Shown in pieces: positions 2,205 to 45,126 of a DNA stretch of 64,000 nucleotides (position 1 is its first letter; every line of letters begins with the position of its first letter). The DNA is from an uncultured Planctomycetia bacterium (lineage in GTDB: Bacteria > Planctomycetota > UBA8108 > UBA1146). The stretch covers positions 135,448 through 199,447 of the forward strand of contig CAYRAM010000001.1 of NCBI GenBank assembly GCA_964422295.1, read 5' to 3'. Under the pieces are notes generated by a model. That model worked only from the letters and a program-made list of their open reading frames with translations. It was not told where the DNA came from and ran no database searches. The translations under genes were made by a program, and so were the position numbers.

Positions 2205-2402
2205 TAGGTCCTGCGACCCTGAGAGTTGAATTAGAGAAAACCAAACCCGAGTGATCCACTGCTAAAGGGGATCCTGCGACCTTGAAGCGACCTTGAAGCA
2301 ACCTTGGAGCGACCTTGGAGCGACCGAGGGGCAAGCGAGGAGCAAGCGAGGAGCGACCGGGGACGACGTTGGAGAGAGGTATTCGTGGAGAGAGGTATTC
2401 AT
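2205..2402. repeat. Cascade of short tandem duplications immediately upstream of and including the pilM-like start codon
   Basis: Four successive units each occur twice or more in tandem: gcgaccttgaa x2, gcgaccttggag x2, gcaagcgaggag x2, gagagaggtattcRtg x2. 'cctgcgaccYtga' also appears at 2208 and 2270. The last unit duplicates the SD-like sequence plus the GTG/ATG start. Confidence 0.6.
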
Positions 2403-4263
2403 GGCTGACTTCGAAGAAGTCTGGTGTCTCGATGGAGGAAAAAACTCCCTCAAGGCGATCAAGATCCAGCGGTCCGGCAACGGCGCTGAGATCGTCGCCG
2501 CCGAAAAAATCGAACACCCACTGGGCGCAGGCCCCGAGGCGACCGCAGCAGCGATCTCCAATTTGGCTTCTCAACATTCTCTCGCCGGGCCCTTGGCAGT
2601 TTCCCTACCGAGTCGTTCAGCACTGACAAGTTTCATCACCGTTCCTCCAGTGGACGGCAAGAAATTGGAGGAGCTGATCGGTTATGAGGCGCAGCAGAAT
2701 ATTCCGCTGCCGATGGAAGACGTCATCTGGGACAGCCACATTTGTGGCGATACCGACGACGGCGAGAAGGAGATTGGAATCTTTGCTGTCAGATCTGAAG
2801 AAGTTTCCGATCTTCTTCAAGATCTTGAGGCCGACAATTTGGAAATTGATGTACTCACACTCGGTAATGTCGGATTGCTGAATCTGATTCGCTTTGACCT
2901 CCGCCCCAAGCGTCCGATGGTCGCAATTGAAATCGGCGCACACCACACCGACCTGGTCGTGGTCAATGGGTCGCGTTACTGGTTCCGTTCGGTGCCCGTC
3001 TCCGGCAAGGATTTCACCCAGGCGCTTCAGGAACGTTTCAATTGCACTGAGGAGGAAGCGGAAAATCTCAAGGTGACCGCAGCCAAGTCTGACCATGCTG
3101 CCAAAATATTTGAAGTGCTGCAGCCGCTCTTGCGCGACCTTGTCAGTGAGATCAATCGTTCGATTGGCTATTACAAGTCCCGGGCTGGTGAGCTCAAGAT
3201 CGAAGATTTGTTCCTTTTCGGTGGCAGCGGCAAAGTGGTGGGGTTGCGAAAGTTCTTAGAAGACAACCTGCGGATTCGGGTGCAGATTTTCAAAAGTTTG
3301 CAACGCGTGCGGATTCGCCCCGAAGCGAATATTGTGCAGCAAGATCTGCAGGCGTTTTCATCTTGTATTGGAGCCGGACTACAGGCACTGGGGCTCGGTG
3401 AGATAGACCTCAATCTTTTGCCGCAGGAGCAACAGGAAGCCGCAGAATTCAAGAAGAAACAGAAGGTTGTTCTTGGAGCGACAGCCGCTCTCTATCTACT
3501 CATCGCATTCTTCGCAATCGTCTTCGGTGGCAAGATTGACGATGCCAATGCAGTCCTTCAGGAAGCCGGACTCGTCGACGAGTTGAAGGATAATGAAAAG
3601 TTGCTGGCGAAACTCCAGGAGGACAAGAGAGTAGTCCTTGAAAAGATGCAGAGCGACCTGGTTTCTCATGGAGCGGGTCGCCTCGTTCCCCGGGAGGTTC
3701 TCGAAATCATCGCCACAATCCCGAATGCCGAGCAAGTCTCCCAATCGATTCGCATGGAAGTGGAAGACGGTCCTGAAAAGGATAGCACCCGCGGTTCTGT
3801 TGAGGCGGAACAGGAATCACTCAACACCCAAAAGACTTGGCTCTCCGGGTTTGATGTTCGCAAGGTCAGAGTGACTGACTCGGGTACTGTTCTTGAAAAG
3901 GGAAGCAAAGTCGATTCGGGGATGACGGTCTTTGATGATCGTTACCAGGTGACTGTTCGTGGATTCCGATACGACCAAGGGGATGCCTCGACCAACGACC
4001 AGCAACTCAAATTGGTGGTCGTAGATCCGATTGAAGCCCGACTGACTGAAACATATGGTGCTCCTGAATATGGAGAGCGGGTCAGTCGAAATGTTGGAAC
4101 TGAAACGATGTTGATGTGGGCTCCCGACGATAATTTCAAGAGGGGTCGACAACGAGGACGCAATGACGAGGCATCTAGGGATCACGGGACTCCCCTCTAC
4201 CCCTGGACCATCTCTTGGGTCTATCCGCCGCTCCCGGTGGATCCCTCGGATGAAGAAGAATAG
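2401..4263 (+). CDS. pilM: Type IV pilus/T2SS-like assembly protein PilM fused to PilN-like segment, with an extra ~200-aa C-terminal domain
   Basis: Start taken at ATG 2401 (MADFEEVWCLDGG), which is the second copy of the duplicated SD+start unit. The ORF track extends to 2293 through the repeats. The N-terminal actin-like ATPase-fold pattern is typical of PilM (...IGAHHTDLVVVNG..., GKDFTQALQERFNCTEEEAENLK, SEINRSIGYYKS, LFLFGGSGKVVGL). A PilN-like 'LNLLPQEQQE' motif with one TM helix (VVLGATAALYLLIAFFAIVFGG) follows. Confidence 0.75.
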   Translation: MADFEEVWCLDGGKNSLKAIKIQRSGNGAEIVAAEKIEHPLGAGPEATAAAISNLASQHSLAGPLAVSLPSRSALTSFITVPPVDGKKLEELIGYEAQQNIPLPMEDVIWDSHICGDTDDGEKEIGIFAVRSEEVSDLLQDLEADNLEIDVLTLGNVGLLNLIRFDLRPKRPMVAIEIGAHHTDLVVVNGSRYWFRSVPVSGKDFTQALQERFNCTEEEAENLKVTAAKSDHAAKIFEVLQPLLRDLVSEINRSIGYYKSRAGELKIEDLFLFGGSGKVVGLRKFLEDNLRIRVQIFKSLQRVRIRPEANIVQQDLQAFSSCIGAGLQALGLGEIDLNLLPQEQQEAAEFKKKQKVVLGATAALYLLIAFFAIVFGGKIDDANAVLQEAGLVDELKDNEKLLAKLQEDKRVVLEKMQSDLVSHGAGRLVPREVLEIIATIPNAEQVSQSIRMEVEDGPEKDSTRGSVEAEQESLNTQKTWLSGFDVRKVRVTDSGTVLEKGSKVDSGMTVFDDRYQVTVRGFRYDQGDASTNDQQLKLVVVDPIEARLTETYGAPEYGERVSRNVGTETMLMWAPDDNFKRGRQRGRNDEASRDHGTPLYPWTISWVYPPLPVDPSDEEE

Positions 4264-5103: not shown

Positions 5104-6210
5104 TTGCAAAATATCGATAAAATCACGATCGCTGTCGTTGCTTTGCTCCTCGTCGGAGGTTTTGGCTACCCCTTCCTGATGAGTGATCCCGGGAGTGAAT
5201 ACTCGAGCAAGATCAGCGAAGCCAATGAGGCCATCGAGGAAAATATGGCGTCCCAAGATCTGGGCGACCAAAGTGTTCCGGAAGTCCTCGGCAAAGTTCG
5301 TATGGCTTACGACATCTCCGGAGACGTGGCGATTCCTGAATGGTCTTTTTACCGCAAACCTGCCCGTCTCGATGTCAAGGAGCGGATCATCCAGGTTCCG
5401 CCGACCCTCGATCCCGCCTACCTTGCATCAGTCGCAGTGGTTCGGGATGCGGGGGGGCAACTCACCTATCATGAAATATCTGGTCGCCATGCGATTTACA
5501 CCAATGCGGAGATCACTTCCTGCGTCGTCGAAATGCGGGAAGGGGACGGGGAGTGGACGAAGCTGGATCAGGTAAACAGTTTCGCTTCTGGCCAGGCCTT
5601 TTCGATTCGGTCCGGTGCCTTGGAAGTTGGCCGCAGTTATCGCTATCGCATTTCTACCAAGGCCGCTGCTCTTCCTGGAAACATGTCCTTTCCCCGGGAT
5701 GGATCGAACTCTGTCTTGTCGGGAGAGACGGGACCCGTGTTGATGCCCGCTGATGAGGCTTGGAAGGTCAGTGGTGCCCAGGTGGGCCGCCTTGATAGTG
5801 CCGGCAACTTCATGCCCGGTCGTGCCACCATCCAGTACTCGCGTTGGGATTGGGAATCTTCCTCAGCGAAAAAATCCGCAAAGGTTGTGACCGAGCCGAA
5901 GGCGGGTGATCAGAGTGTCGAGCTGTTTGATACCGGTTTCCGATTGGAACGGATTCAGGATACGGCGGATGGTCGCGTTGTCGTTCTGCGGAACGAGAGC
6001 GGCAAAAGAGCCTATTTGAAAAACAATGATGACCCCCAGTCCCTGACCCCTCCGGGGTGGGACAACTTCGACAGTGATCCCGCTGAATCAACAGGGGAAG
6101 AAGACGAGGATGACGACTTGGGAGCGGTAGAGCCCGCCGACGAAGTCGAGCCGGTCAAGCCGAAGAGAACCCGCCCGAGCGGGGGGGGTCTCTTTGGAGG
6201 TGACGACTAA
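5104..6210 (+). CDS. Membrane-anchored periplasmic protein occupying the PilP position (FN3-like segment, acidic C-terminus)
   Basis: Has an N-terminal TM helix (ITIAVVALLLVGGFGY). 'GRSYRYRIST' resembles an FN3 strand motif. The C-terminus is Asp/Glu-rich and ends in a Gly-rich tail. It is co-directional with its neighbours and separated from them by only 4 nt and 2 nt. Confidence 0.5.
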   Translation: MQNIDKITIAVVALLLVGGFGYPFLMSDPGSEYSSKISEANEAIEENMASQDLGDQSVPEVLGKVRMAYDISGDVAIPEWSFYRKPARLDVKERIIQVPPTLDPAYLASVAVVRDAGGQLTYHEISGRHAIYTNAEITSCVVEMREGDGEWTKLDQVNSFASGQAFSIRSGALEVGRSYRYRISTKAAALPGNMSFPRDGSNSVLSGETGPVLMPADEAWKVSGAQVGRLDSAGNFMPGRATIQYSRWDWESSSAKKSAKVVTEPKAGDQSVELFDTGFRLERIQDTADGRVVVLRNESGKRAYLKNNDDPQSLTPPGWDNFDSDPAESTGEEDEDDDLGAVEPADEVEPVKPKRTRPSGGGLFGGDD

Positions 6211-6380: not shown

Positions 6381-8897
6381 ATGTCGATAAGCCTCCGGGA
6401 GCCCCAATTCAGAATCGTCATGGCGAGAAGTACCTTCTCAATCTTTGCCATGACCCTGTTGCTCCTCTGCGTTGCCGCCCAACCTGTCACAGCCCAGGAA
6501 GAGGGTGTGGATGGTCTGATCCGCGATGTCAGCTTGGAGAATCAGGCCCGGGCAGGTGCCGCTGTCCAAGCGGTGAATGCAGCGGAAAAACTGATCAACG
6601 AGTTACGCTATATCGAGGCGGAAGAGAAGTTGCAGGAGGCTGTTCGCCTCGATCCTGGCAACCAAAATGCCCGCGATCTTCTCGACACGGTACTGATGTT
6701 GCTCAGTGATCGCAGCGGAGATATCCGCGATCTTCAACGCCGAATGGTCGATGAGAAGAAGGTGCGACTGCAGCAGGACGTCTTTGAATTGGAGCGTCTG
6801 TATCTCGATGGCCGCAGGGCCATGGACGATGGCAGTTACGACAAGGCGGTCGCCATCTTCGATCAGATTCTTGAGCGGATTCGTTGGTTCCCCTTCGACT
6901 ATGATCTCAGCGATCAACAGAATCGGGCTCGCCAGTCGAAAGAAGAGTCGCTTCGCCTGCAAAATGAGAACGCCGCAGCCGAGAAGCGTGAGCGCGAGAT
7001 GCGTATTCTTGCAGAGGCAGAGTCGGAAATGGCACGGTCTGTATCCTTCATCCAAAACCGGATTGATGAGATTCTGCGCCAAGCGCGTCGCCTCTTTGCC
7101 GAAAGAGATTACGAGAGGGTGATCACTCTCTGTGACGAGGTTTTGCAACTCGATCCTTCAAGGAAGGATGTTCGTGCGCTTCGCCGTGAAGCCGCTGAAT
7201 TGCGCCATCTTTATGAGGTCCTCGACACCAGTTTGCAGACGCAACTTGAGTGGGATCGTACATTCCTGAGCCAGTTGGAATCGGAAATCCCTTACACGGA
7301 TATCTTTAATTTCCCTTCCCGTGAAGAATGGATGCGAATTACTCGCCAGGAACAGTCCCTCGAAGATCGTCTTCAAGCAGTGGAAAGCCAGCAGGAAAAG
7401 ACGATTCGCTCGCGTCTAAAGGTGCGTGTCGCCAGCGTTGAGTTTGAAGATGAGCCCTTTGAACAGGTGATCCAATTTCTCAGGGAACTCTCCGGGATCA
7501 ATTTCGTTCTCACCAAGGAAGCGTCCGAAGCTCTCGAAGGTGGCGATGGAACAGTGCGGCTGGCAGAAGTTACGGACCTGCCCCTCGAAAACGTATTGAA
7601 CCTGGTACTTCAAGGGAACGATCCACCATTTACCTACGTCATCCGGTCGGGAGCGGTTCTCATCGGCCCTTCCGATTCTGTTCGCAATGATGTGTTCCTG
7701 GAGTTTTACGAAGTTTCCGATATCACCAAAGACAAGCCTGATTTCCGTGCACCGCGTCTCGCTCTGCAGTCGAGCCAGGATGGGGATGACGGCGGAGCGG
7801 GGGGACTCTTCGACATCGGCGGGGAAGAAGACTCCCAGGAGACCACGCTGGATTCCGATATCCTCGTCGAGTTGGTCGTCAACGCCCTTTTCGGTGACGA
7901 AGGTGAACCGGACGGCGAGTCTGTGAGGATCCAAAGTGGTCGCCTTGTTGCGAACACCACTCTCGCCAACCACCGCAAGTTGATTCAATTGCTCAAAGCA
8001 TTGCGCAAGTCCACGGGGGTCATGGTGACGGTGGAGAGCCGCTTTATCGATCTCCAGGACAATTTCCTCGAATCGATCGGAGTCGATTACGGAAATCCGT
8101 TCAATTCCAATTTGCCGAACCCCATCAATGACATCGACGGTGCCGGTACCCAGATCGCAGCCGGCTTCGAAATCGTCGACGCCCAGGGAGAGATCGACGT
8201 GAGAGCAGCGGTTTACAACGCATTTTCGCTGCCTCTGGGGTCTTCCGTTTCACCCTTCAATCTCTCTGATACCGGTGGATTCGCGATTCAGTACAACGTT
8301 CTCGACAGTTACGCACTGGAAGCGATTCTGGAAGCCAATCAGAAGATGCAGCGCACCAAGAAGTTGGATGCGCCCCGTGTGACTGCCTTCAACACCCAGA
8401 TCTCCCACTCTCTCGTGGTTGATCAGAGTGCCTATATCGAGGATGCCGAAGTCAACCAAACCGGTGTGGTCCCCGTGATCAACCCTGTGATCGGGATTCT
8501 GAACTCAGGTTCGATTCTTCAGGTTCGCCCGACGGTCAGCCACGATCGCAAGTACGTGATTCTTGAGATCGAGCCGACCCTTGCAGTGCAGCTGCCATCC
8601 CGATTCAAGACTCTGACCCTCGGATTGACCAATCTGAATGTCGAGTTCCCCGTCCTTTCCGTAACAAACATCAAAACCACTGTGACGATTCCTGACGGCG
8701 GAACGGTTCTGGTGGGGGGACTCAAGCGCACCATCACCCAGGAATCCCGATCAGGAATTCCGGTGCTGTCGCGATTGCCGATTCTGGATCTCCTCGTCGG
8801 ACGCAAAGGGAATGCCCGCATGCAGTCGAATTTGTTCGTGTTGATCAGCGCAAAAATCACAGTTATCCGTGATGAAGAAGAGAAGCGGTTCAATTGA
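6381..8897 (+). CDS. Secretin (PilQ/GspD family) with N-terminal TPR/coiled-coil region and STN/N0-like domain - secretin paralogue 1
   Basis: The C-terminus carries the canonical secretin signature (...VTIPDGGTVLVGGLKRTITQESRSGIPVLSRLPILDLLVGRKGNARMQSNLFVLISAKI). Start chosen at ATG 6381, preceded by GGAGAG, which gives the signal-like 'MARSTFSIFAMTLLLLCVAAQPVTAQ'. The ORF track begins at 6213. Confidence 0.85.
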   Translation: MSISLREPQFRIVMARSTFSIFAMTLLLLCVAAQPVTAQEEGVDGLIRDVSLENQARAGAAVQAVNAAEKLINELRYIEAEEKLQEAVRLDPGNQNARDLLDTVLMLLSDRSGDIRDLQRRMVDEKKVRLQQDVFELERLYLDGRRAMDDGSYDKAVAIFDQILERIRWFPFDYDLSDQQNRARQSKEESLRLQNENAAAEKREREMRILAEAESEMARSVSFIQNRIDEILRQARRLFAERDYERVITLCDEVLQLDPSRKDVRALRREAAELRHLYEVLDTSLQTQLEWDRTFLSQLESEIPYTDIFNFPSREEWMRITRQEQSLEDRLQAVESQQEKTIRSRLKVRVASVEFEDEPFEQVIQFLRELSGINFVLTKEASEALEGGDGTVRLAEVTDLPLENVLNLVLQGNDPPFTYVIRSGAVLIGPSDSVRNDVFLEFYEVSDITKDKPDFRAPRLALQSSQDGDDGGAGGLFDIGGEEDSQETTLDSDILVELVVNALFGDEGEPDGESVRIQSGRLVANTTLANHRKLIQLLKALRKSTGVMVTVESRFIDLQDNFLESIGVDYGNPFNSNLPNPINDIDGAGTQIAAGFEIVDAQGEIDVRAAVYNAFSLPLGSSVSPFNLSDTGGFAIQYNVLDSYALEAILEANQKMQRTKKLDAPRVTAFNTQISHSLVVDQSAYIEDAEVNQTGVVPVINPVIGILNSGSILQVRPTVSHDRKYVILEIEPTLAVQLPSRFKTLTLGLTNLNVEFPVLSVTNIKTTVTIPDGGTVLVGGLKRTITQESRSGIPVLSRLPILDLLVGRKGNARMQSNLFVLISAKITVIRDEEEKRFN

Positions 8898-17616: not shown

Positions 17617-17669
17617 GGGTCGCCACCGGGTGGAAATCTCGGTGGCGACCCTCGTGCCTTGAACGAGGG
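17617..17669 (+). terminator. Two overlapping, mutually exclusive GC-rich hairpins downstream of secretin 2; no U-tract
   Basis: Hairpin A is GGGTCGCCACC(17617-27) paired with GGTGGCGACCC(17641-51). Hairpin B is CCCTCG(17649-54) paired with CGAGGG(17664-69). The two share 17649-51. Confidence 0.45.
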
Positions 17670-17677
17670 TGAGTGAG

Positions 17678-18409
17678 ATGAGTCAAATCCAGGCCATATT
17701 TTTTGATGTCGATGGGACCTTGTTCTCGACGGTCGATTTTGCTGCAAGGGCAAGGCGGGCCAGTGTACGAGCGATGATTCAGGCTGGTCTCGACATCGAG
17801 GAGGATCTCCTGATGGAGGAACTCCACGAGGTGGTCAAAGAGTTTTCATCCAATTACGAGGGACACTTCGACAAACTTTTATTGCGTTTGCCCCGCAGAT
17901 CTTTGAAGGGATTGAACCCGGCTGTCATCATCTCTGCAGGCATCGTCGCTTATCACGATACAAAAACTCGCTTTCTGGAACCTTTTGAAGATGCCAGTGA
18001 GGTCTTGCGACGCCTTGCTAAAACTGGGCTTCGTCTGGGAATCATCACAGAGGGACTTGAAGTCAAGCAGTCAGAAAAATTGATTCGCTTGCGACTGCTT
18101 GAGTACTTTGACCACAAGGCGATCTTTATTTCGCATCAGGTTGGGATTTCGAAGCCTAATCCAAAGCTCTATCAGAGGGCATGCACGGATCTCAACCTCC
18201 GTCCATCCGAATGCCTGTACGTGGGCGATAACCCCATGCTCGATATCGATCCAGCCAATGAGATCGGAATGGTCACGGTGCTGGTGAGCCGAGAGGACAG
18301 ATTTCGATCAGTCAGTGGCAATACACAACCGGACCACGTCATTCAGAATTTCTGGGATTTGTCGGAAATCCTGCGTGAACAGGGTGTGAGTGTCCCGGAG
18401 GTACTGTGA
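17678..18409 (+). CDS. HAD-superfamily hydrolase (phosphatase)
   Basis: Has the 'IFFDVDGTLF' DxDGT motif I and 'YVGDNPMLDI' motif IV. The ATG at 17678 with a GAGGG SD is preferred over the GTG at 17669. Confidence 0.8.
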   Translation: MSQIQAIFFDVDGTLFSTVDFAARARRASVRAMIQAGLDIEEDLLMEELHEVVKEFSSNYEGHFDKLLLRLPRRSLKGLNPAVIISAGIVAYHDTKTRFLEPFEDASEVLRRLAKTGLRLGIITEGLEVKQSEKLIRLRLLEYFDHKAIFISHQVGISKPNPKLYQRACTDLNLRPSECLYVGDNPMLDIDPANEIGMVTVLVSREDRFRSVSGNTQPDHVIQNFWDLSEILREQGVSVPEVL

Positions 18410-19371
18410 TGGCACATCCTGAGTTGAGCATGGTGATTCCGGTTCGTGATGAGATTGAAGCGGTCGATTCACTGGTATCACGCTTATCTGAGTCTCTGGA
18501 AATGCTCGACGTTCGATCATTCGAGGTGATCTTTGTGGATGACGGATCTACGGATGGAACTGCAGAGCGACTTGAATGGCTGACCATCGAGGATGACCGC
18601 TACAGCCTTTTACGATTGCGCAGGCCTATGGGAAAAGGGGATGCCCTCGCAGCGGGATTCGAAAAAAGTCGCGGTGATTGGGTTGCGACCATCGATGCCG
18701 ATTTACAGGAACCCCCTGAAGAAATGGGTTCTTTGTTGCGTATTGCTCGATCCGGAGTTGACCTTGTGATCGGTTGGCGTCATCAGCGTAGTGATCAGCT
18801 GAGTCGCAGGATTTCTTCAACCCTTTACAACCAAATGGTCCGCTGGGTCGGTGGGCCACCTCTCCATGACGGCAACTGTGGCTTCAAAGTAATGACCCGG
18901 GAATTAGCGCTCACCCTGCCACTGGCAGGAGGAAGATTCCGATTTATGCATCTCGTTGCTGCTCGCTGGGGATACACCGTGCAAGAGGTTCCTGTTTCCC
19001 ATCGGCCACGACAGACGGGAGCTTCCCACTTCGGAGTATCGCGTGCTTTTTCAGCAATCTTCGATCTGGTAACAGTCCTGGTTTATCTGCGTGGGCAGGA
19101 TCGACCAGGTAGGAGTCTCTTGCGCTGGGGCATCTTTACAGGATCTCCCGGATTGGTGATTTTGATGTTCCTCGGCTATCTACGATTCGCCGATGGCACG
19201 ATAAACTATCGCTACCCACTTTTAGTATTGGGCGCACTGTTGACTCTGGCAGGATTGCAACTGGTTCTCTTTGGTTGTATGGCGGAATGGTTCTCAGGAA
19301 AGTCAAATGCAACTTTCACGCGCAAGAAATCAAACAATGTGGTACTTCGAGAGCGTGAACGACTGCCGTGA
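18406..19371 (+). CDS. Family 2 glycosyltransferase, polyprenyl-phosphate sugar synthase type (DPM1/ArnC/GtrB-like) with C-terminal TM helices
   Basis: Carries 'SMVIPVRDE', 'FEVIFVDDGSTDGT', 'DADLQEPPEE' and C-terminal hydrophobic helices. It overlaps the upstream gene by 4 nt (ATGA). Confidence 0.85.
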   Translation: MMAHPELSMVIPVRDEIEAVDSLVSRLSESLEMLDVRSFEVIFVDDGSTDGTAERLEWLTIEDDRYSLLRLRRPMGKGDALAAGFEKSRGDWVATIDADLQEPPEEMGSLLRIARSGVDLVIGWRHQRSDQLSRRISSTLYNQMVRWVGGPPLHDGNCGFKVMTRELALTLPLAGGRFRFMHLVAARWGYTVQEVPVSHRPRQTGASHFGVSRAFSAIFDLVTVLVYLRGQDRPGRSLLRWGIFTGSPGLVILMFLGYLRFADGTINYRYPLLVLGALLTLAGLQLVLFGCMAEWFSGKSNATFTRKKSNNVVLRERERLP

Positions 19372-20504
19372 TGTCTGTTCCAACCCTGCGTGTATTTTCT
19401 GCATCCTGGCCTGGCAAAGTGGAACCGTGGCGCGCACGATTCATCCGGGATCTTCATAAAGACTTGTCTCAGGATTTTGAAACGAGTGTGCTCGCGCCAG
19501 CCATCCATCAGGAGGACCCTCTCGAAGAGCAGGATGGGGATCTAAAGATCCGCCGCTTCCGATACCGGTCCGGTGGTAAGTCTCCCAGGCAGGGGGGAGC
19601 AGGAATCGTCGAATCGGTCTCATGGATGCTGTCAGGCCGAAGGGCTTTGCAGCAGTGGAAAATGGATCAAAGGAACAGTGTGACACTGGTTCATTGGGGG
19701 GTTCCAGGTGCATTTCTTGCGGCGCCGTTTTGCGACGAGATCAACAATCCAATGGTTGTCTGGTGTCATGGGAGTGATGTTCATAATCATGGACGCGGGT
19801 TTTGGGGCTCATTCCTTCTAAGGAGGGGCTTGAAGTCGGCGACTCGCGTTCTTGCTGCCAGTGCTGAGTTGGCGGATGAACTGAAGAGGAAACATGGAGT
19901 TCCTGCGGTGGAGGTGCTGCCTGTTGGAATTGATGCAACCTTTCAATCTCCGGCGATTGTCGGCAGGAGAAGTGCAGGGTTGCAAATACTCTGGGTTGGG
20001 GAAAGGGTCGAATCGAAAGGTTACGGAAGGGCATTACGCGGAGTCCAGAGGGCTGCGGAAAAGGGAGTGTCAGTATCGATGGAAGTCATTGGGGATGGAC
20101 CTCTCAAAGGCGTTGGAAACTTTACTCCGAACTTGCGAGGAGTCATCGATTCCAGGGGCGTTCGTGAAGCGATGGATCAGGCAGATCTATTGTTGCTACC
20201 CAGCCATGGTGAAGGGACTCCTCTGGTAGTGCAGGAAGCCAAGGCCCGCAATCTGCCTGTGGTCGCAACTCCGGTGGGTGGGATTCCAGCGATGTTCGAG
20301 GGTGACCAAGGATGGTTCGCGCTGAATTCATCCGGGGAGACAGAACTTGAAGCAGAAATTTGCGATTTATTGTCAATGTTGGAGCGGGACGCAGATGCAC
20401 TTGCTCAGCGGAGGCAGCAACTCGCAGAGTCATCGATTCCGGTTCAGTACCGGCGACAAAGTGCTGACAGATTGACCGAGATTATTCAGGAATTGAGCCC
20501 GTGA
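19368..20504 (+). CDS. Family 4 (GT-B) glycosyltransferase
   Basis: 'LLPSHGEGTPLVVQEAKARNLPVVATPVGGIPAMFE' matches the GT-B EX7E region. It overlaps the upstream gene by 4 nt. Confidence 0.8.
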   Translation: MMSVPTLRVFSASWPGKVEPWRARFIRDLHKDLSQDFETSVLAPAIHQEDPLEEQDGDLKIRRFRYRSGGKSPRQGGAGIVESVSWMLSGRRALQQWKMDQRNSVTLVHWGVPGAFLAAPFCDEINNPMVVWCHGSDVHNHGRGFWGSFLLRRGLKSATRVLAASAELADELKRKHGVPAVEVLPVGIDATFQSPAIVGRRSAGLQILWVGERVESKGYGRALRGVQRAAEKGVSVSMEVIGDGPLKGVGNFTPNLRGVIDSRGVREAMDQADLLLLPSHGEGTPLVVQEAKARNLPVVATPVGGIPAMFEGDQGWFALNSSGETELEAEICDLLSMLERDADALAQRRQQLAESSIPVQYRRQSADRLTEIIQELSP

Positions 20505-23266
20505 TGTGGGATTCACCCTTACTTCGCTTGATGATTCTTCTCGTCACAGGTTTGGCTCTCTATTCACCGGTCTTTGATGGTGAATGGGTATTTGATGACG
20601 AACGTCTGGTGGCGGGACACGATTGGCTATGGAGAGACTGGTCCGGAGTCTCTGCGGAGTTGAATTCTTGGGGCGAGATTCTTCGGGATGGTCCTCGGGA
20701 GGGGGATGAAGTTCGTACAGGATTTCGTCCGATTCGTTTCATTTCATATCGCATCGATGTATTGGTGCTAAAGTCAGCGGGAATCGACCAACCCAATCAT
20801 CCCGACGCACCGATACCGTTTCATATTCATAACCTGCTGTTGCATGTGTTGGTGGCGTGGTCCATCTCAGGTTTGATCGGGCGCTTATTTCCCTGGAGCC
20901 GAGGTGGACTTCATTTGGTAGTTGCCTTGGTGTATCTGGTTCATCCTGTTCAGACGGAAGCGGTCGCCTGGATCTCCGGTCGTAGAGATGTGTTGTTTTC
21001 CCTCTTCTATCTGTGTGCTTTGCTCGGAATTGCCGGACAACCGCTTCGAAACCTGCGTGGCCTCAAGGGGTGGCTGAGGGGATTCTTTCTGGCCTTGCTG
21101 GGGGCGATGGCGATGGCTACCAAGGAGATGGCCGCAACTCTGCCCTTGGTGATGGTAATGCTGGCGGCAATTCCTTCGGAAGATGACTCCGGTGCGGAAT
21201 TCGGTGAGGGCTCCTCTTCAAGCAATGCGCTGTCTTTGCGGCGGGCACTCTTGGCTTTTCCAGTTTGGATTCCGGTATCCCTGGTGGTTTGGGGAATGAC
21301 TCTACAACTGCTGTTGCATCACCACCCGGGAGAAGGTACCGAACGGTGGGGGGGCAGCGCTTGGGCGACCGTGTGGACTTCTGGACGCGCATTGGTCGAT
21401 TACATGTTGTTGATCATCGCTCCATGGGGGCTCACGGTGGATTACTCCCATGGAGCATTTCCACCTTCATCCGGCCCATTCCAACCGATTAGTTCCATCT
21501 TCTGCATGATCGCATTGGTGGTCCTTTCCGTGATCACCTGGAGATATCGGGGTTCAGCTTGGTCAGTGCTGGGGTGGCCGCTGTTTTTTGTACTCCTGAG
21601 CCCTGTGTTGCAGCTGATTCCTCATCCGGAGAGATTTGCGGAGCGATTCATGTACCTGCCAATGCTGGCGCCGATGCTGCTGCTCGCTGGCGGACTTTAT
21701 CGTTTAGAGAAATCCCACCCCGGTTGGAGGCAGATTCTGGTTCCGATTCTGTTGGTAATATTGGCGTTATTGACGCGATCCCGACTTCGCGACTGGGAGG
21801 GACCGTATCCCCTTTGGAAAAGTGCAGTCGAAGCGCAGCCGCAATGCGCCCGGGCATGGTTTGGTCTTGCAGACGCTGCCAGTGAAAAAGGATGGAACTG
21901 GGAGGCTGTGGAAGGATTGCGGACGACGATCGAGATTCTGGGACCAATGGAGAGGGACCATCTCCAACAAGGATTATACCTCCAGGCGTTACAGATTCGT
22001 GCCGGATTGCTGGCAACCTTTCTCCCGCAGCAAGCATTGCTTGATGCCCGCTCCCACTGGGAGGAATTGTTGGAAGAAGTGGATACGGATGGGACAGCCG
22101 TATCAGATCAGGCTTTGCCTTGGTTTGAACGCATGAAGGTCGAAGTCCGGCTGGGTGATGACGAGGCTGCGCTGTTATGTGCGCGACGACTCTTGGAATT
22201 GGAGTCTTCTCTTCCCGAACAACGCTTTGAATCCCTGATGTTATTGGCGGCTTTAGGCTCCAGTGAAGAGAGTCTCGACAGTTTGGAAGTGGCCCGGGAG
22301 CTCGCAATGGAGATGGGCGGGAATGCGCCCTCAAGGGTGTTTTATCAGAAGGGGATGTTACACCTTGCCGCAGAAGAATATGAATTGGCACTCAAAGCAT
22401 TTGTCGAATCTCAAAATAATCTGACCGCCGACGGTCGAGCTAGCAGTGCACTCTATCGTCAGGCGGAATGCCAACTGCAACTTGGACGCACTCAGGATGC
22501 AAAATCGATCCTCGAAAATCTCTTGAAGGTGGATCCAGGACATCTTGCAGCACACCTGTCTTTGGGTGAGTTGTTGTTGGCGACTGCAGAGAGAGAATCG
22601 GCCCGTGGGCATTTTGAATTTGTCTTGTCAGTTTCTCCCGACAATCCCCAGGCAATTCAGGGGATGCGTCAGGTGATGATTCGTCAAAGATTGGAAGAGG
22701 GTGATTCAGTCGCATTACCCGATCCGACCCGGATTGCAACATTGACCCTGTTGGCAGAAAAACTGCAAAAAGAAGGGCAATTTGAAAAGGCCAGGGAAGC
22801 ATTGGTCGAAGCCGAAAAGGAGGCGGAAGGTCCGGCAGAGAGGGATCGGCGCCTCGATCTCATCTTGCGAATCGCCCGTTTGGATGCCCGCATGAATGAA
22901 TGGGATCGAGCCGGTATTGGATACAGCCGTCTGTTCGATCGAACGGAGGTCGCTGATCGTGGTCGATTCATTCTTGAAGCTGTCGAGGTGCTCAGACGAA
23001 CCGGAGGAGCCAGCATTGCGCTGGAGTTTCTCGAACAGCAGCAACGGGAAGGAGTTTCGCATCCGGCTCTGAGGTCCCAATTGGGTGCACTCGCAGATCA
23101 AGTGGGGGATGTGGAAAAGGCTTTGAGGTGGTACCGTGAAGCTTTGGAAAATGACGCAGAAATATCCGAGCAACGCCGTCAACAGATCGATGACAGGATC
23201 AAAGTCTTGAAAAAAATGGGCGAAGTCGCTGATCCAGAAAACAACACGGTGAAAACAACACCATGA
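20501..23266 (+). CDS. TMTC/PMT-like multi-pass membrane protein (putative GT-C glycosyltransferase, DUF1736-like) with C-terminal TPR repeats
   Basis: About 450 aa of polytopic membrane domain beginning 'LALYSPVFDGEWVFDDERLV', followed by ~450 aa of TPR-like repeats. It overlaps the upstream gene by 4 nt. The TGA stop lies inside the 14-nt tandem repeat. Confidence 0.6.
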   Translation: MMWDSPLLRLMILLVTGLALYSPVFDGEWVFDDERLVAGHDWLWRDWSGVSAELNSWGEILRDGPREGDEVRTGFRPIRFISYRIDVLVLKSAGIDQPNHPDAPIPFHIHNLLLHVLVAWSISGLIGRLFPWSRGGLHLVVALVYLVHPVQTEAVAWISGRRDVLFSLFYLCALLGIAGQPLRNLRGLKGWLRGFFLALLGAMAMATKEMAATLPLVMVMLAAIPSEDDSGAEFGEGSSSSNALSLRRALLAFPVWIPVSLVVWGMTLQLLLHHHPGEGTERWGGSAWATVWTSGRALVDYMLLIIAPWGLTVDYSHGAFPPSSGPFQPISSIFCMIALVVLSVITWRYRGSAWSVLGWPLFFVLLSPVLQLIPHPERFAERFMYLPMLAPMLLLAGGLYRLEKSHPGWRQILVPILLVILALLTRSRLRDWEGPYPLWKSAVEAQPQCARAWFGLADAASEKGWNWEAVEGLRTTIEILGPMERDHLQQGLYLQALQIRAGLLATFLPQQALLDARSHWEELLEEVDTDGTAVSDQALPWFERMKVEVRLGDDEAALLCARRLLELESSLPEQRFESLMLLAALGSSEESLDSLEVARELAMEMGGNAPSRVFYQKGMLHLAAEEYELALKAFVESQNNLTADGRASSALYRQAECQLQLGRTQDAKSILENLLKVDPGHLAAHLSLGELLLATAERESARGHFEFVLSVSPDNPQAIQGMRQVMIRQRLEEGDSVALPDPTRIATLTLLAEKLQKEGQFEKAREALVEAEKEAEGPAERDRRLDLILRIARLDARMNEWDRAGIGYSRLFDRTEVADRGRFILEAVEVLRRTGGASIALEFLEQQQREGVSHPALRSQLGALADQVGDVEKALRWYREALENDAEISEQRRQQIDDRIKVLKKMGEVADPENNTVKTTP

Positions 23267-23303
23267 AAACAACACCATGAAAACAACAGCATGAAAGCGA
23301 CCC
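23235..23303. repeat. 14-nt tandem repeat (RTGAAAACAACASC, about 4.5 copies) spanning the stop of the TMTC-like gene and the start of the next gene
   Basis: Direct reading: cagaaaacaacacg / gtgaaaacaacacc / atgaaaacaacacc / atgaaaacaacagc / atgaaagcgaccc. The stop TGA is at 23264-66 in copy 3 and the next ATG is at 23291 in copy 5. Confidence 0.85.
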
Positions 23304-25618
23304 ACTATCTGGCGATGATTGGCGCAGCACTGATGGTGCTCGAAGTCTTGGTTGCCCGAGAATTGGCAACGGTGTTTGGCAACACGTTGTCCGGGGTCAC
23401 TTTGGCGATGAGTCTCGCATTGATCGGACTCGCGGCAGGTCTAATTGTGGTCACCTTGGGCGCCGAGCGCAGATCCGAGTCCTCCCATTGGTGCAGGATT
23501 ACCCTTTTGGGAATTGTTCCTGCAGGGATCTGGGTGGTGTATCTCTTGCCGTTGCTCCTCGATGGCAGTCGGCTGCATGGATCTGCTGCATTGAGACTTT
23601 TGTTGTCGCTGCCGCTATTGTGTGGAGCGATTCCACTGGGAGCTGCGATTACCGCAGCATTCAATGCCTCTCGGAAAGAAGTCGAAGAACGGGCATCCAA
23701 TGGGGTCTGTGCTCTCGATCTCGGCAGTGCAGCGGGTGCACTGCTGACCCCGCTTCTGCTCTTGCCTGAACTCGGAGAAGCCGGTGCTCTCGTGGTTGCG
23801 GTGCTTTTGTTGTTGGCTTGCTGCCGACGTGGGGAAACGGTCGCCAGGGTCCCATCCGAGTTGACAGAGGCGGATCATCCTGTTTCTCGGAGAGACATCG
23901 CCATCGCCGCATGGATCGGCATCGTGACGATGGCGTTACAAATTGGCTGGATCCGAACCTTGGGAGAAGTCTTTGGCTCAACTTTGACCATCTTCGGATT
24001 GACGACGGCAGCCATCTTGCTGGGTGGAGCAGCGGGTGCTCAGGCGATGCCGGCCATCCGTTCCAAGGTAGGCAATGAAAAGGTTCAACGATTCGCTTGG
24101 GCGCTGTGGCTGACGCTCCAGGGCTTTTCAATGCTGTTGCTGTCATTTACACCTTACATCTTCATCGCAATGGTTCAGTGGTTTAGCAACCAAGGTGAAT
24201 CGGGATTGCTGTGGGGGGAATGCCTGCTGATTCTTGCAGTCGTTGGTTTGCCATCCTTTTGTGTGGGGATCATCGTCCCTGCATTGATGGTAAAGCATGG
24301 TGAATATGGCCGCCTGGACAAGGGTGCGGGAGTCTTACAGGGTGCTCAGCTCATCGGAGGGGTGGTTGGTCTTGGATTGACAGCAACCTGGCTGCTTCCC
24401 GCATACGGTTCCCTTGGGCTCTTCATTGCTTGCGGAATAATGACTTTTGCCGGAGGAGTTCCTCTGCTGCGCAGGAGCGGTCACGGCACCACTGCGGGGG
24501 CCTTTTTGTGTGGCGGTCTGCTGATGGCTGCTTCCAGCCAGTTTTGGGATTCATCCCTGATGTCTGCAGGTGTTTTCCAGTGGGATCGGGCAGAGGTGGC
24601 CCGAGGGGAAGCATTGAAAGCTTGGGAGCAGCGGGAGGTGGTTGCAGAATTTTCAGGACAGTTTGGCAACGTACTCATCGAACGCGACTATTCGCAAAAC
24701 ACGGCATACCTTCGTGTGGGAGGCAGAATCGAGGGCAGCGTGCCCATCGACCCTGCTGCATCCACAATGGCAGATTTGCCCACGGAGGTTCTCCTCGGAG
24801 TTTTACCCACATGGGCGGGATCGGGACAGGGTCGGCTCTTGGTGGTGGGCCTGGGTGGAGGCACGACGGTGGCTGCAGCAGTCGAGACCTGGGATGGGGA
24901 GATGGTCGTCCTCGAAATTGAGCCGGCGGTGAAGGAAGCACTGTTATCGCGGCAGGGAGCAGAAGTTTTTCCCATTGAAAATGAAGCACTTCGAGGCCGG
25001 AAAGCTCCCCAGCTGGTGATTGAGGATGCGCGTTCATACCTGGTCCAGGATAATCGCCAGTGGGATGCGATCGTCATTCAGCCATCGGAACCGTGGTTGC
25101 CTTGGTCGGCGCCGCTCTTCACCCCAGACTTCCACCAATTGTTGGCGAATCGTCGTGCAGCGGGTGGGGTTGTCATCCAATGGTTGCAACTCTATCGCAT
25201 TGGAATTCCGGAATTTGCTGCCATCCTCTACTCCTTCAAAGAAGCGCTGGGAGAGGTGCAAGTATGGCATCCGCCGGGGACCGGTGAGGTCTTGCTGGTT
25301 GCCGGAGATGTGAAGGTGCCCGAGTCACCCATCGAATCCGTGGAAAAGGCGTGGGGCAGGGTGCTCGGAGTTCCTTTCCCCACTCAACCCTGGCTCGACG
25401 ATGACGACGTGGTGGCATGGCTTGAATCTGCAGGAGGGGCGGACCTCGACCGTCTCAGGGAGCGTCTGGAGTACTACTTGCCCCTGAGGGAAGAGAGTGG
25501 GATGGATCTGTCCCGGAGCCTCCTGTCCTCACTGGAGGCGATCCGCCGCAGGAGTCCTAGCAAGGGCCCCGCAGGGGAATCGACCGATTCCGTCAGCGGG
25601 GCTCCAGATGGGGGCTAA
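23291..25618 (+). CDS. Polytopic membrane protein fused to a spermidine-synthase-like (SpeE-fold, SAM-MTase-like) C-terminal domain
   Basis: About 430 aa of TM helices, then 'LLVVGLGGGTTVAAAVE...VVLEIEP...LVIEDARSYL...WDAIVIQPSEPW', which matches the aminopropyltransferase fold pattern. Confidence 0.7.
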   Translation: MKATHYLAMIGAALMVLEVLVARELATVFGNTLSGVTLAMSLALIGLAAGLIVVTLGAERRSESSHWCRITLLGIVPAGIWVVYLLPLLLDGSRLHGSAALRLLLSLPLLCGAIPLGAAITAAFNASRKEVEERASNGVCALDLGSAAGALLTPLLLLPELGEAGALVVAVLLLLACCRRGETVARVPSELTEADHPVSRRDIAIAAWIGIVTMALQIGWIRTLGEVFGSTLTIFGLTTAAILLGGAAGAQAMPAIRSKVGNEKVQRFAWALWLTLQGFSMLLLSFTPYIFIAMVQWFSNQGESGLLWGECLLILAVVGLPSFCVGIIVPALMVKHGEYGRLDKGAGVLQGAQLIGGVVGLGLTATWLLPAYGSLGLFIACGIMTFAGGVPLLRRSGHGTTAGAFLCGGLLMAASSQFWDSSLMSAGVFQWDRAEVARGEALKAWEQREVVAEFSGQFGNVLIERDYSQNTAYLRVGGRIEGSVPIDPAASTMADLPTEVLLGVLPTWAGSGQGRLLVVGLGGGTTVAAAVETWDGEMVVLEIEPAVKEALLSRQGAEVFPIENEALRGRKAPQLVIEDARSYLVQDNRQWDAIVIQPSEPWLPWSAPLFTPDFHQLLANRRAAGGVVIQWLQLYRIGIPEFAAILYSFKEALGEVQVWHPPGTGEVLLVAGDVKVPESPIESVEKAWGRVLGVPFPTQPWLDDDDVVAWLESAGGADLDRLRERLEYYLPLREESGMDLSRSLLSSLEAIRRRSPSKGPAGESTDSVSGAPDGG

Positions 25619-27640: not shown

Positions 27641-27686
27641 TCCAGTCGCAGAGGAAAAGGCAGTGGAAGAAGGCAGTAGAAAAGGC

Positions 27687-27773
27687 TGGTACCGGAGGTG
27701 GGACTCGAACCCACAAGACCCGAAGGTCAGCGGATTTTGAATCCGCCGCGTCTGCCAGTTCCGCCACTCCGGC
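27687..27773 (-). tRNA. tRNA-Leu (anticodon CAA), 87 nt with long variable arm, CCA encoded
   Basis: The reverse complement is GCCGGAGTGGCGGAACTGGCAGACGCGGCGGATTCAAAATCCGCTGACCTTCGGGTCTTGTGGGTTCGAGTCCCACCTCCGGTACCA. The anticodon stem is GCGGA/TCCGC and the loop TTCAAAA gives anticodon CAA. Confidence 0.85.
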
Positions 27774-34594: not shown

Positions 34595-35023
34595 TTATTT
34601 CAGTGGATTAAAGGGAGCCAATGGGTCGCGCCCCTGTGCCGGATCCAGCAGAATTTGGGAATCACTGATTTCAGAGAGCACTCCATCGATGTTGATCATC
34701 TCTCCGACCTTGACCTCTTGGGCCATCGCCTGAAATTTTCCGTAATGACAACGAATATTGCCCTCAAGGATGATCCAGCAGGATTTGGGGTCTGAGGTGT
34801 CGGTGCTTGTAACTTTGCCACGGACCGTGATTTTCTTGCCGATGAAAGGGGTTCCTTTCTCCCTCAGATCCTCTGCCAAGACTTGAACTGCCGGATCGGA
34901 GTAATCCATCTTCCAACCGGTGCATCCGCAGAGAAGGGCCAGAATCAAAGAAAGGAACAGATTAGAAAGGAACAGATTAGAACTGAGTCCCACGGAACAA
35001 CACCCTTCCTGTGAATGGATCAA
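34595..35023 (-). CDS. Lipoprotein, function unknown
   Basis: Has an 'ILALLCGCTGW' lipobox. The N-terminus contains an SNLFLSNLFLS duplication, encoded by the DNA tandem repeat gaaaggaacagatta x2 at ~34950-34985. Confidence 0.5.
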   Translation of the reverse strand: MIHSQEGCCSVGLSSNLFLSNLFLSLILALLCGCTGWKMDYSDPAVQVLAEDLREKGTPFIGKKITVRGKVTSTDTSDPKSCWIILEGNIRCHYGKFQAMAQEVKVGEMINIDGVLSEISDSQILLDPAQGRDPLAPFNPLK

Positions 35024-43992: not shown

Positions 43993-45126
43993 ATGAACGC
44001 TGGATCGAATATGACTTGGTTCCCATGTGCCATTCTCTCAGTGCTGTGGACGCTGGCTCTCTGTGGAGAGGTTTTGTCCCAGGATCCCCCCGCTCCTGCC
44101 AAGGAGGTCACCAAGGATGCTTCCGCAACCGATGACGGCGCCGACGGATCGGTCGACGACATTTTGGGTTTGCCGACCAGCGAGCCGGAAGCGGTGGCCG
44201 TGATCGATCGCTACCTTGAATCGGTGGGTGGCAAAAACCGCCTAAAAAGCATTCAGGACCGGGTCGAGCGCTTCCGCAATAAAAAGATAGAGCCTACCAA
44301 CGAGACGATCATGAAGATGTCACGGTTCCTCAAGCGCAATGACGGCGCATTGATGATTCGTGAAGAGTGGCAACTTCCCGGTCTTGGTCTGACCAAGAAC
44401 AACGAGCCTCTCAATTTCGTTCAGGTCTACGACGGTGAGAAAGCCTTCGTCAAAGCGATGGGCGCAGTCTCCCCGTTGGCAGGCAAGACCTTGATCGTGT
44501 TCGTGTGGGACAAGCACATCGATGACTTTTTCTGCACTTTTTCCGATAACGGCTACATCGCCAAGGTGGCCGCGGATGACGTCGTCCTGGGCAAGGCATG
44601 CAAGGTGGTGGAACTGAACTCTTTCGCAGGTAATCAACGCATGTTGTTTGCCTTCAGCGATGAAGACGGACTCTTGCTGCGCAAGACGTGGCAAGAGGGT
44701 CAGGCACCTGCAGTGATCACAAAAGAAGTCTTCTACGAAGATTACACCCGGATCCGCTTCAGCGACGATCGCAATCAGTGGATCAAAACTCCCATCTCCA
44801 AGAAGATTTTTGAAGACGGGGAACTCAGCCTTGAAGTCAACTTTGATGAAATCACCCTCAATGCGGGGATTTCCTCCAACATCTTTGGTCGTCCTGACGG
44901 ACGATCCTTTGAAGAGGTTCGCCGCGAGCGAGAAGCTGCCAGAGCCAAAGAGAAAGAAGGCGTTGCAGGGGGCGATGCAGCCGAAGGCGATGAAAAGAAG
45001 CCGGTCTGGGAGAAGCCGAAACCAAAGCCGAAGCCTGTGTGGGAAAAACCCAAACCAAAACCTGCGCCGAAGCCGGCTCCAAAACCAGAGCCGACTCCGG
45101 AGCCCACACCTGAACCCAAGCCTTAG
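43993..45126 (+). CDS. Secreted protein with C-terminal (K/E)P-rich repeat tail
   Basis: Has a signal peptide (CAILSVLWTLALCGEVLSQ) and a C-terminus of 'KPVWEKPKPKPKPVWEKPKPKPAPKPAPKPEPTPEPTPEPKP'. Confidence 0.5.
   Translation: MNAGSNMTWFPCAILSVLWTLALCGEVLSQDPPAPAKEVTKDASATDDGADGSVDDILGLPTSEPEAVAVIDRYLESVGGKNRLKSIQDRVERFRNKKIEPTNETIMKMSRFLKRNDGALMIREEWQLPGLGLTKNNEPLNFVQVYDGEKAFVKAMGAVSPLAGKTLIVFVWDKHIDDFFCTFSDNGYIAKVAADDVVLGKACKVVELNSFAGNQRMLFAFSDEDGLLLRKTWQEGQAPAVITKEVFYEDYTRIRFSDDRNQWIKTPISKKIFEDGELSLEVNFDEITLNAGISSNIFGRPDGRSFEEVRREREAARAKEKEGVAGGDAAEGDEKKPVWEKPKPKPKPVWEKPKPKPAPKPAPKPEPTPEPTPEPKP

Follow-up and report, generated by a model that had tools for sequence, protein, structure and literature searches.

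A frame-safe 14-nt tandem repeat at a stop/start junction of a planctomycete operon and its probable origin from an ATGA overlap

Does a tandem repeat with a unit length not divisible by three act as a switch when it lies exactly where one gene stops and the next one starts? This question is raised by a 14-nt repeat in a 64-kb stretch of DNA (the window) from contig CAYRAM010000001.1 of an uncultured Planctomycetia bacterium. The repeat forms the junction between the genes of a 921-aa and a 775-aa membrane protein, and an initial annotation of the sequence proposed it as a candidate phase-variable or dosage-tuning switch. The analysis reported here points to a different answer. The array is probably a lineage-specific amplification of an ancestral ATGA overlap by slippage or unequal recombination, tolerated and near-neutral, and not an ON/OFF contingency switch. 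A probability of roughly 0.6 is assigned to this reading.

The repeat array and its reading frames

The array occupies positions 23235–23304 with a period of 14 nt and is read on the plus strand as five units, CAGAAAACAACACG / GTGAAAACAACACC / ATGAAAACAACACC / ATGAAAACAACAGC / ATGAAAGCGACCCA. Unit 1 (23235–23248) is degenerate; it begins with CAG in place of a start codon and codes for a stretch of the upstream protein's tail (..ENNT). The GTG of unit 2 (23249–23262) is an in-frame valine codon of the upstream gene. Unit 3 (23263–23276) holds the stop codon of this gene (TGA, 23264–23266), and unit 4 spans 23277–23290. The downstream gene starts with the ATG at 23291, and its first codons (MKAT) are provided by the degenerate unit 5 (23291–23304). 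This unit shares 9–10 of 14 bases with the repeat unit, and this last copy is 71% identical in the repeat-family analysis (family D1). Open reading frame (ORF) coordinates and translation confirm the initial placement of the upstream TGA in copy 3 (...ENNTVKTTP*) and of the downstream ATG in copy 5. The accompanying statement that each copy carries an ATG or GTG is correct for units 2–5 and fails for unit 1.

Tandem Repeats Finder (TRF) detects the array at 23237–23296 with a period of 14, 4.3 copies, 93% matches and a score of 99, which is the top score of the window and bears out the repeat described initially. Among 60 shuffles of the window that preserved dinucleotides, TRF scores reached 63 at most, with a mean of 44, all below that of the array. 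The 14-mer with up to two mismatches occurs four times in the 64 kb (0.5 expected) and three of these occurrences lie inside the array. The array is real and non-random. With its short units repeated head-to-tail at a gene it resembles a contingency locus in this respect.

Only two substitutions are found among units 2–4 and the outer units are the degenerate ones, as is typical of slippage arrays that are young. The unit itself looks like a copy of the junction together with the first four or so codons of the downstream gene, as judged from MKAT in unit 5 compared to MKTT in the unit.

A single 263-kb NCBI contig is the only known source of the window's protein, whose relatives all come from metagenome-assembled genomes (MAGs). 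De Bruijn assemblers with small k can miscount tandem repeats, and the copy number or even the whole array could in principle be an assembly or consensus artefact. However, the array spans about 60 nt with an exactly periodic core of about 39 nt (23250–23288), a length below that of ordinary reads and of the usual largest k. Substitutions at both ends set the units apart. Furthermore, the flanking ORFs are intact and of full length compared to the orthologues, and a random mis-join would rarely keep both. An artefact is therefore quite improbable.

Searches for a second sequence of the species covered several sources and found none. The look-up of encoding contigs for the 775-aa protein of the window and for the identical entry P0001 gave no contig on record, and P0001 is the sole member of its 90% cluster. 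Metagenome scans gave no match, be it with a 26-nt conserved anchor located immediately after the junction or with a two-unit repeat pattern. With the last 321 aa of the upstream protein as query nothing above 66% identity was found, and the GTDB species representatives contained nothing above 79% identity.

Both long ORFs share one reading frame (coordinate mod 3 = 2) and are separated by the TGA and eight codons, an observation that is missing from the initial annotation. All three frames are closed by TGAs at 23250, 23264, 23278 and 23292. Three-frame translation and simulation identify two mini-ORFs on the plus strand, namely mini-ORF 1 (MKTTP*, ATG AAA ACA ACA CCA TGA, 23263–23280) and mini-ORF 2 (MKTTA*, ATG AAA ACA ACA GCA TGA, 23277–23294). 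Three consecutive ATGA overlaps result. In the first one (23263–23266) the TGA of the upstream gene overlaps the ATG of mini-ORF 1 at 23263. In the second one (23277–23280) the TGA of mini-ORF 1 overlaps the ATG of mini-ORF 2 at 23277, and in the third one (23291–23294) the TGA of mini-ORF 2 overlaps the ATG of the downstream gene at 23291. The ATG-bearing units are closed five-codon mini-ORFs because each has its own ATGA and 14 equals 15 - 1.

The locus was rebuilt in silico with 0–6 units to test the effects of copy number. For n = 2–6 the upstream protein stays at 921 aa with a ...(V/M)KTT(P/A)* tail, in which at most one residue is substituted depending on the unit dropped, and the downstream ORF of 775 aa is unaltered. 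Both proteins are invariant at n ≥ 2 because a TGA and an ATG come with every unit. This makes the array frame-safe: a change of copy number with n ≥ 2 alters neither protein. According to the initial annotation, adding or losing one unit would shift the frame and change the C-terminus or fuse the ORFs. For n = 2–6 neither is observed, and a fusion appears at n = 1 only. Gain or loss of a unit consequently does not turn a gene ON or OFF by frameshift or promoter spacing in the way of a contingency locus.

The expected effect of copy number on coupling spacing, on the other hand, is present. The stop-to-start distance is -4, +10, +24, +38 and +52 for n = 2, 3, 4, 5 and 6, and the number of ATGA-linked mini-ORFs rises from 0 through 1, 2 and 3 to 4 over the same range. 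At n = 2 a plain ATGA overlap is obtained. Copy number could at most tune the dosage of the downstream protein or the ratio of downstream to upstream protein.

Loss of three units (n = 1) produces an in-frame fusion of 1691 aa and n = 0 a frameshifted extension. An uninterrupted ORF at n = 1 and the common frame of both genes allow another reading, in which readthrough of the TGA or a three-unit deletion yields a TMTC-like/SpeE-like polyprotein of about 1700 aa (about 185 kDa) with the junction peptide ..KTTP-X-KQHHENNSMKAT... Distant family members do join TPR and SpeE-like domains in a single chain. However, a shared frame has a chance expectation of one in three, the TGA is followed by neither a recoding signal nor a structure, and TGA is the normal stop codon at most junctions of the operon and of the orthologous loci. 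The orthologues all hold two genes in different frames with an overlap of -4 or -1. Such a fusion protein is extremely improbable. A selenocysteine or readthrough codon at the in-frame TGA was considered separately and rejected, since no structure follows the TGA and the orthologues are out of frame.

Orthologous junctions and the genes of the operon

Related loci were collected by exact-protein look-ups and from the GTDB species representatives, which were scanned with an alignment of 17 sequences. The junction was read in 26 orthologues of the locus from MAGs of marine Planctomycetota with protein identities of 36–79%; a few of these loci are duplicate records of the same contig. These loci belong to other species (identity of at most 79%); they show lineage-specificity and leave room for variation at the strain level.

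The gene order GT2, GT4, TPR protein, SpeE-like protein, rplM, rpsI is kept in the orthologous loci. The distance between stop and start codon is -4 (ATGA, GTGA or TTGA) in 19 of the 26 loci, -1 (TGATG or TAATG) in five and +3 in two. A distance of +24 between the two real genes is found in the window alone. The tight overlap of coupled genes (-4 or -1) is therefore present in 24 of the 26 orthologues, whereas the gene pair of the window reaches it only stepwise via the two mini-ORFs. The downstream start itself (ATG 23291) occupies the position that is conserved in all orthologues.

TRF analysis of 32 related loci (292 kb) detected an array at this junction in none of them, and the 14-nt unit is absent from all 32. 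No repeat tract is kept at the orthologous position (0 of 26), as it would be in a conserved contingency locus. The distances at the 26 orthologous junctions imply that the ancestral state was a tight and strongly conserved stop/start overlap. By this comparison the array is derived and lineage-specific. The initial annotation had named the absence of the repeat at orthologous junctions with unchanged gene organization as evidence against its switch, and exactly this is found in 26 of 26 loci. A classical ON/OFF phase-variable switch is unsupported, since the simulated change of units gives no switch and the array is not conserved.

The conserved overlap suggests that coupled translation of both proteins matters. 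Stop/start overlaps have been linked to heteromeric complexes (Huber et al. 2023, PMC10666635).

Units 1 and 2 are part of the hydrophilic, poorly conserved tail of the upstream protein. Among the orthologues the C-terminal tail is likewise hydrophilic, unconserved and variable in length. Units 1 and 2 could thus be absorbed into the coding sequence, and duplications would be tolerable. The closest orthologue, L001 (...EPEDRDR*ATGA), was inspected as a source of the exact ancestral junction, but the tails are too diverged to align and only an n = 2-like ATGA state can be proposed.

Two of the related loci carry unexpected taxonomic labels: L012 (QNYK01000063.1) is labelled "Bacillota bacterium" and L030 (JAFMMO010000139.1) "Proteobacteria bacterium". 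Gene content and similarity group both with the Planctomycetota relatives. Most likely these are mis-binned contigs or mislabelled MAGs.

A graded function would be compatible with intact proteins. In such a contingency rheostat slippage would alter the number of units, and each ATGA mini-ORF would multiply downstream translation by an efficiency below 1 or add entry sites, so that control would be graded, reversible, heritable and free of frameshifts. Spacing and the number of mini-ORFs do step with n in the simulation while both proteins stay intact, the near-identical units 2–4 are slippage-competent and the genes belong to an operon of the surface-glycan type. The efficiency of coupling depends steeply on distance (PMC10666635), and graded control has a precedent in Helicobacter pylori, where the variable tlpB G-repeat lies in an mRNA leader (PMC8295292). 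However, the array is missing from all 26 orthologous junctions, which argues against a conserved regulatory device, only about three perfect 14-nt units are present, and the same clade contains many apparently incidental arrays. Known contingency tracts usually consist of many copies of 1–7-nt units, and arrays like these three near-perfect 14-nt copies mutate far more slowly. A contingency rheostat is unlikely. Distinctly unlikely is the stricter version, in which selection maintains the array as a frame-safe rheostat, a mini-VNTR (variable number of tandem repeats) of self-contained ATGA modules that sets the stoichiometry of two otherwise tightly coupled membrane proteins. If true, it would be a new mode of heritable graded control of expression and a 14-nt analogue of the MIRUs (mycobacterial interspersed repetitive units) that arose de novo from a gene junction.

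The operon is located on the plus strand. ORF coordinates and Pfam matches assign a HAD hydrolase (17669–18409), a GT2 (18406–19371) and a GT4 glycosyltransferase (19368–20504), each of which overlaps the next gene by a 4-nt GTGA (three junctions, all -4). The upstream gene of the array follows (20501–23266, ending with ...ENNTVKTTP*). It encodes a 921-aa polytopic membrane protein of GT-C / PMT / TMTC-like type with C-terminal TPR repeats. The downstream gene (23291–25618) encodes a 775-aa membrane protein with an MFS-like polytopic N-terminal half and a spermidine-synthase-like C-terminal domain; rplM and rpsI come next.

Neither the N-terminal membrane domain of the upstream protein (440 aa) nor the downstream protein matches a Pfam or NCBIfam family above threshold. 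Protein O-mannosyl-transferase or GT39 is the name given to homologues of the upstream domain with 25–31% identity over most of its length, which carry PF13231 (PMT_2) or PF08409 (TMTC_DUF1736). In the downstream protein the spermidine-synthase-like domain comprises approximately residues 500–660, and the family profile matches spermidine synthases of the PDB with E = 1e-7. The match of this protein to the NCBIfam family "fused MFS/spermidine synthase" (NF037959) is below the curated cut-off. Its distant homologues carry PF01564, and its close relatives are all from marine Planctomycetota MAGs. The labels TMTC-like and SpeE-like, given initially as parts of a glycosylation module, appear reasonable at the level of remote homology and hold via these remote homologues.

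The TMTC-like TPR protein and the MFS/SpeE-like protein are adjacent with a -4 or -1 overlap down to 36% identity, always after GT2 and GT4 (17669–25618 in the window; L001–L031). This conserved pairing suggests joint action of both membrane proteins, perhaps within one complex, in a glycosylation or aminopropyl-transfer pathway of marine Planctomycetota that is so far uncharacterised.

Proposed origin and passage of ribosomes

The array would have arisen when replication slippage or unequal recombination amplified 14 nt that held the ancestral ATGA between the two coupled genes. Other lineage-specific non-coding arrays with periods of 12–17 nt are numerous in the window and its relatives, and this abundance fits a mutational origin of the array at the junction.

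Termination-reinitiation drops steeply with distance. It is nearly abolished at about 20 nt in Haloferax, and in E. coli the reduction is 80–100% at 38 nt and variable at 14 nt (PMC10666635). Direct coupling should be weak here because the gap is 24 nt. Ribosomes may instead pass through the array in a serial relay. They would end the 921-aa gene at UGA 23264–23266, reinitiate at AUG 23263 and make MKTTP. After termination they would reinitiate at AUG 23277 and make MKTTA, and after a further termination they would reinitiate at the conserved SpeE-like start codon, AUG 23291. Such a relay would keep the -4 coupling geometry step by step although the real genes are 24 nt apart. Amplification would be tolerated because the relay makes the array self-healing. 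The last 15 nt of an upstream ORF are enough for termination-reinitiation (PMC10666635), and a gene coupled at -4 can receive its ribosomes from a short ORF (PMC12548453). Quantitatively, downstream output would probably fall with each added unit.

Several points weigh against this account. The relay via five-codon ORFs is deduced from the sequence. Very short ORFs tend to lose peptidyl-tRNA by drop-off and to terminate slowly, and the relay might be inefficient. Neutrality and recency are judged from the homogeneity of the array in a single sequence of the species, and the copy number is that of a metagenome-assembled contig. Additionally, any duplicated length that contains ATGA has a prior of about one in three of giving the relay architecture, which is weak evidence for selection either way.

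The context of translation initiation differs from that of the orthologues. A motif of four or more nucleotides resembling a Shine-Dalgarno (SD) sequence is found at -7 to -16 (lenient criterion) in 20 of the 26 orthologues, where it is embedded in the acidic tail of the upstream gene, whereas in the window no SD-like motif precedes ATG 23291. The sole SD-like element is GGTGA at 23248–23252, 10 nt ahead of ATG 23263; it also scores as SD-like in the simulated variant with n = 2. The 30 nt preceding the downstream start contain 53% A. The segment from -45 to +25 folds with -7.9 kcal/mol compared to -18.5 ± 6.0 kcal/mol in the orthologues and is the least structured of the set; with extra simulated units the structure of the leader drops further. 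SD-independent direct initiation on this A-rich, unstructured leader may contribute to downstream translation.

No significant RNA fold is present at the junction (z-score -0.31). At the gathering threshold Rfam reports two tRNAs only for the whole window and none of them at the junction, and at E ≤ 1 the region 23000–23600 has no match. The scan for promoters and terminators gave a single weak promoter-like site at 23190–23217. A terminator-like hairpin on the minus strand (23265–23245) is a product of the repeat itself and lies on the wrong strand for the operon; it was judged spurious.

The unusually unstructured, A-rich leader and four evenly spaced copies of GAAAACAACA in the array would also suit a platform of A/C-rich direct repeats that binds S1, an Hfq-type A-rich binder, a small RNA (sRNA) or a DNA-binding regulator independently of the mini-ORFs. 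CA- and A-rich unstructured leaders are known as translation enhancers. However, the motif is not enriched beyond chance elsewhere in the window and is absent from the orthologous loci, which is unlike the distribution of a regulon. The orthologues manage without it, and no Rfam family matches. A binding platform is improbable, and amplification of the ancestral ATGA overlap remains the preferred origin of the array.

The conserved tRNA-Leu(CAA) gene on the minus strand (about 27688–27773), downstream of rplM and rpsI, has a purine-rich array with a period of 12–17 nt at its adjoining 3' spot in many species of the clade. This array is located at 27648–27686 in the window, at 7664–7779 in L019, at 7642–7742 in L004 and L011, at 7658–7764 in L010 and at 5875–5935 in L003. 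Further examples are found in L006 (7713–7738), L016 (7414–7458), L018 (5640–5665), L023 (7653–7683) and L025 (7677–7712). Unit sequence and copy number are specific to the lineage, with up to 8.3 copies of 14 nt in L019. L013, L014, L015, L022, L024 and L026 have a hairpin and T-run terminator at this spot instead of an array. The spot looks like a recurrent hot spot of array formation or a fast-evolving functional element. The unit of L019, GTGAATCGAAGACA, also yields a chain of GTGA-linked five-codon ORFs, which is probably a coincidence.

Other repeats are present in the window. A stretch of about 1 kb without a long ORF (1308–2404) contains arrays at 1535–1593 (16 nt, about three copies), 2050–2074 (13 nt), 2276–2359 (11 nt, 4.5 copies, nested in a 33-nt period) and 2370–2404 (16 nt, 2.2 copies). 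The 11-nt array at 2276–2359 overlaps the nominal 5' end of the ORF 2293–4263, and the annotated start of this ORF is therefore probably placed too far upstream. Close to the 3' end of the ORF 43993–45126 an in-frame 33-nt (11-codon) repeat is present in 1.9 copies (44997–45059). A perfect 15-nt repeat in 2.3 copies (34949–34982) is located near the 5' end of the minus-strand ORF 34595–35023. The units of the last two are triplet-compatible and probably encode short peptide repeats.

Comparison with known systems

Contingency loci with simple sequence repeats (SSRs) and the tlpB G-repeat of H. pylori with its sRNA RepG (PMC8295292) resemble the array in part. It is a non-triplet head-to-tail repeat at a gene boundary in an operon of the surface-glycan type, and a change in its length would alter the context of downstream translation initiation. 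Unlike in SSR contingency loci, a change of copy number frameshifts neither ORF, the unit is long (14 nt), the copy number is low and the array is not conserved at orthologous loci. Unlike the tlpB G-repeat, it has no known sRNA partner. If the array is merely neutral, it is a caution that a repeat with a non-triplet unit at the boundary of a gene need not be a frameshift switch, as the unit may bring its own stop and start codons.

Termination-reinitiation coupling at ATGA or TGATG overlaps has been described in detail (Huber et al. 2019, PMC6728339; Huber et al. 2023, PMC10666635). Each of the three consecutive junctions of the array has the canonical ATGA geometry, and the mini-ORFs hold 15 nt of sense codons, which is the length reported as sufficient. 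The real genes, in contrast, are 24 nt apart, a distance at which the direct mechanism is largely lost, and two serial reinitiations would be needed. If the relay works, a -4-coupled junction can be multiplied several times and still pass ribosomes. The array would then be a ready-made series of n = 2, 3, 4 and more units for determining the efficiency of reinitiation per step and for tuning subunit ratios in operons.

The closest known analogue of the array is the mycobacterial MIRU. As far as they are described in a later paper, MIRUs are tandem intergenic units of operons whose small ORF is coupled at -4 nt to the flanking genes, an arrangement believed to keep the effect on expression small (PMC12548453, which cites Supply et al. 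1997). Their number varies between strains: in the senX3-regX3 MIRU of Mycobacterium tuberculosis, H37Rv has three 77-bp units and CDC1551 two 77-bp units and one of 53 bp (PMC4213456). The array at 23235–23304 likewise consists of tandem units between co-directional operon genes, with ORFs that overlap the neighbouring stop and start codons at -4 nt. Its unit of 14 nt, on the other hand, is much shorter than the approximately 46–101 bp of a MIRU, and its host is a planctomycete. Furthermore, MIRUs are a dispersed and seemingly mobile family with members at many loci, whereas the array is confined to the junction in the 64-kb window (0 of 32 related loci) and apparently has a local source in the junction and the opening codons of the downstream gene. 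If the relay works, MIRU-like arrays of coupled small ORFs can arise locally by slippage and not by mobility. By analogy the array is best described as a VNTR at a translationally coupled junction, MIRU-like in its presumed working and outside the MIRU family.

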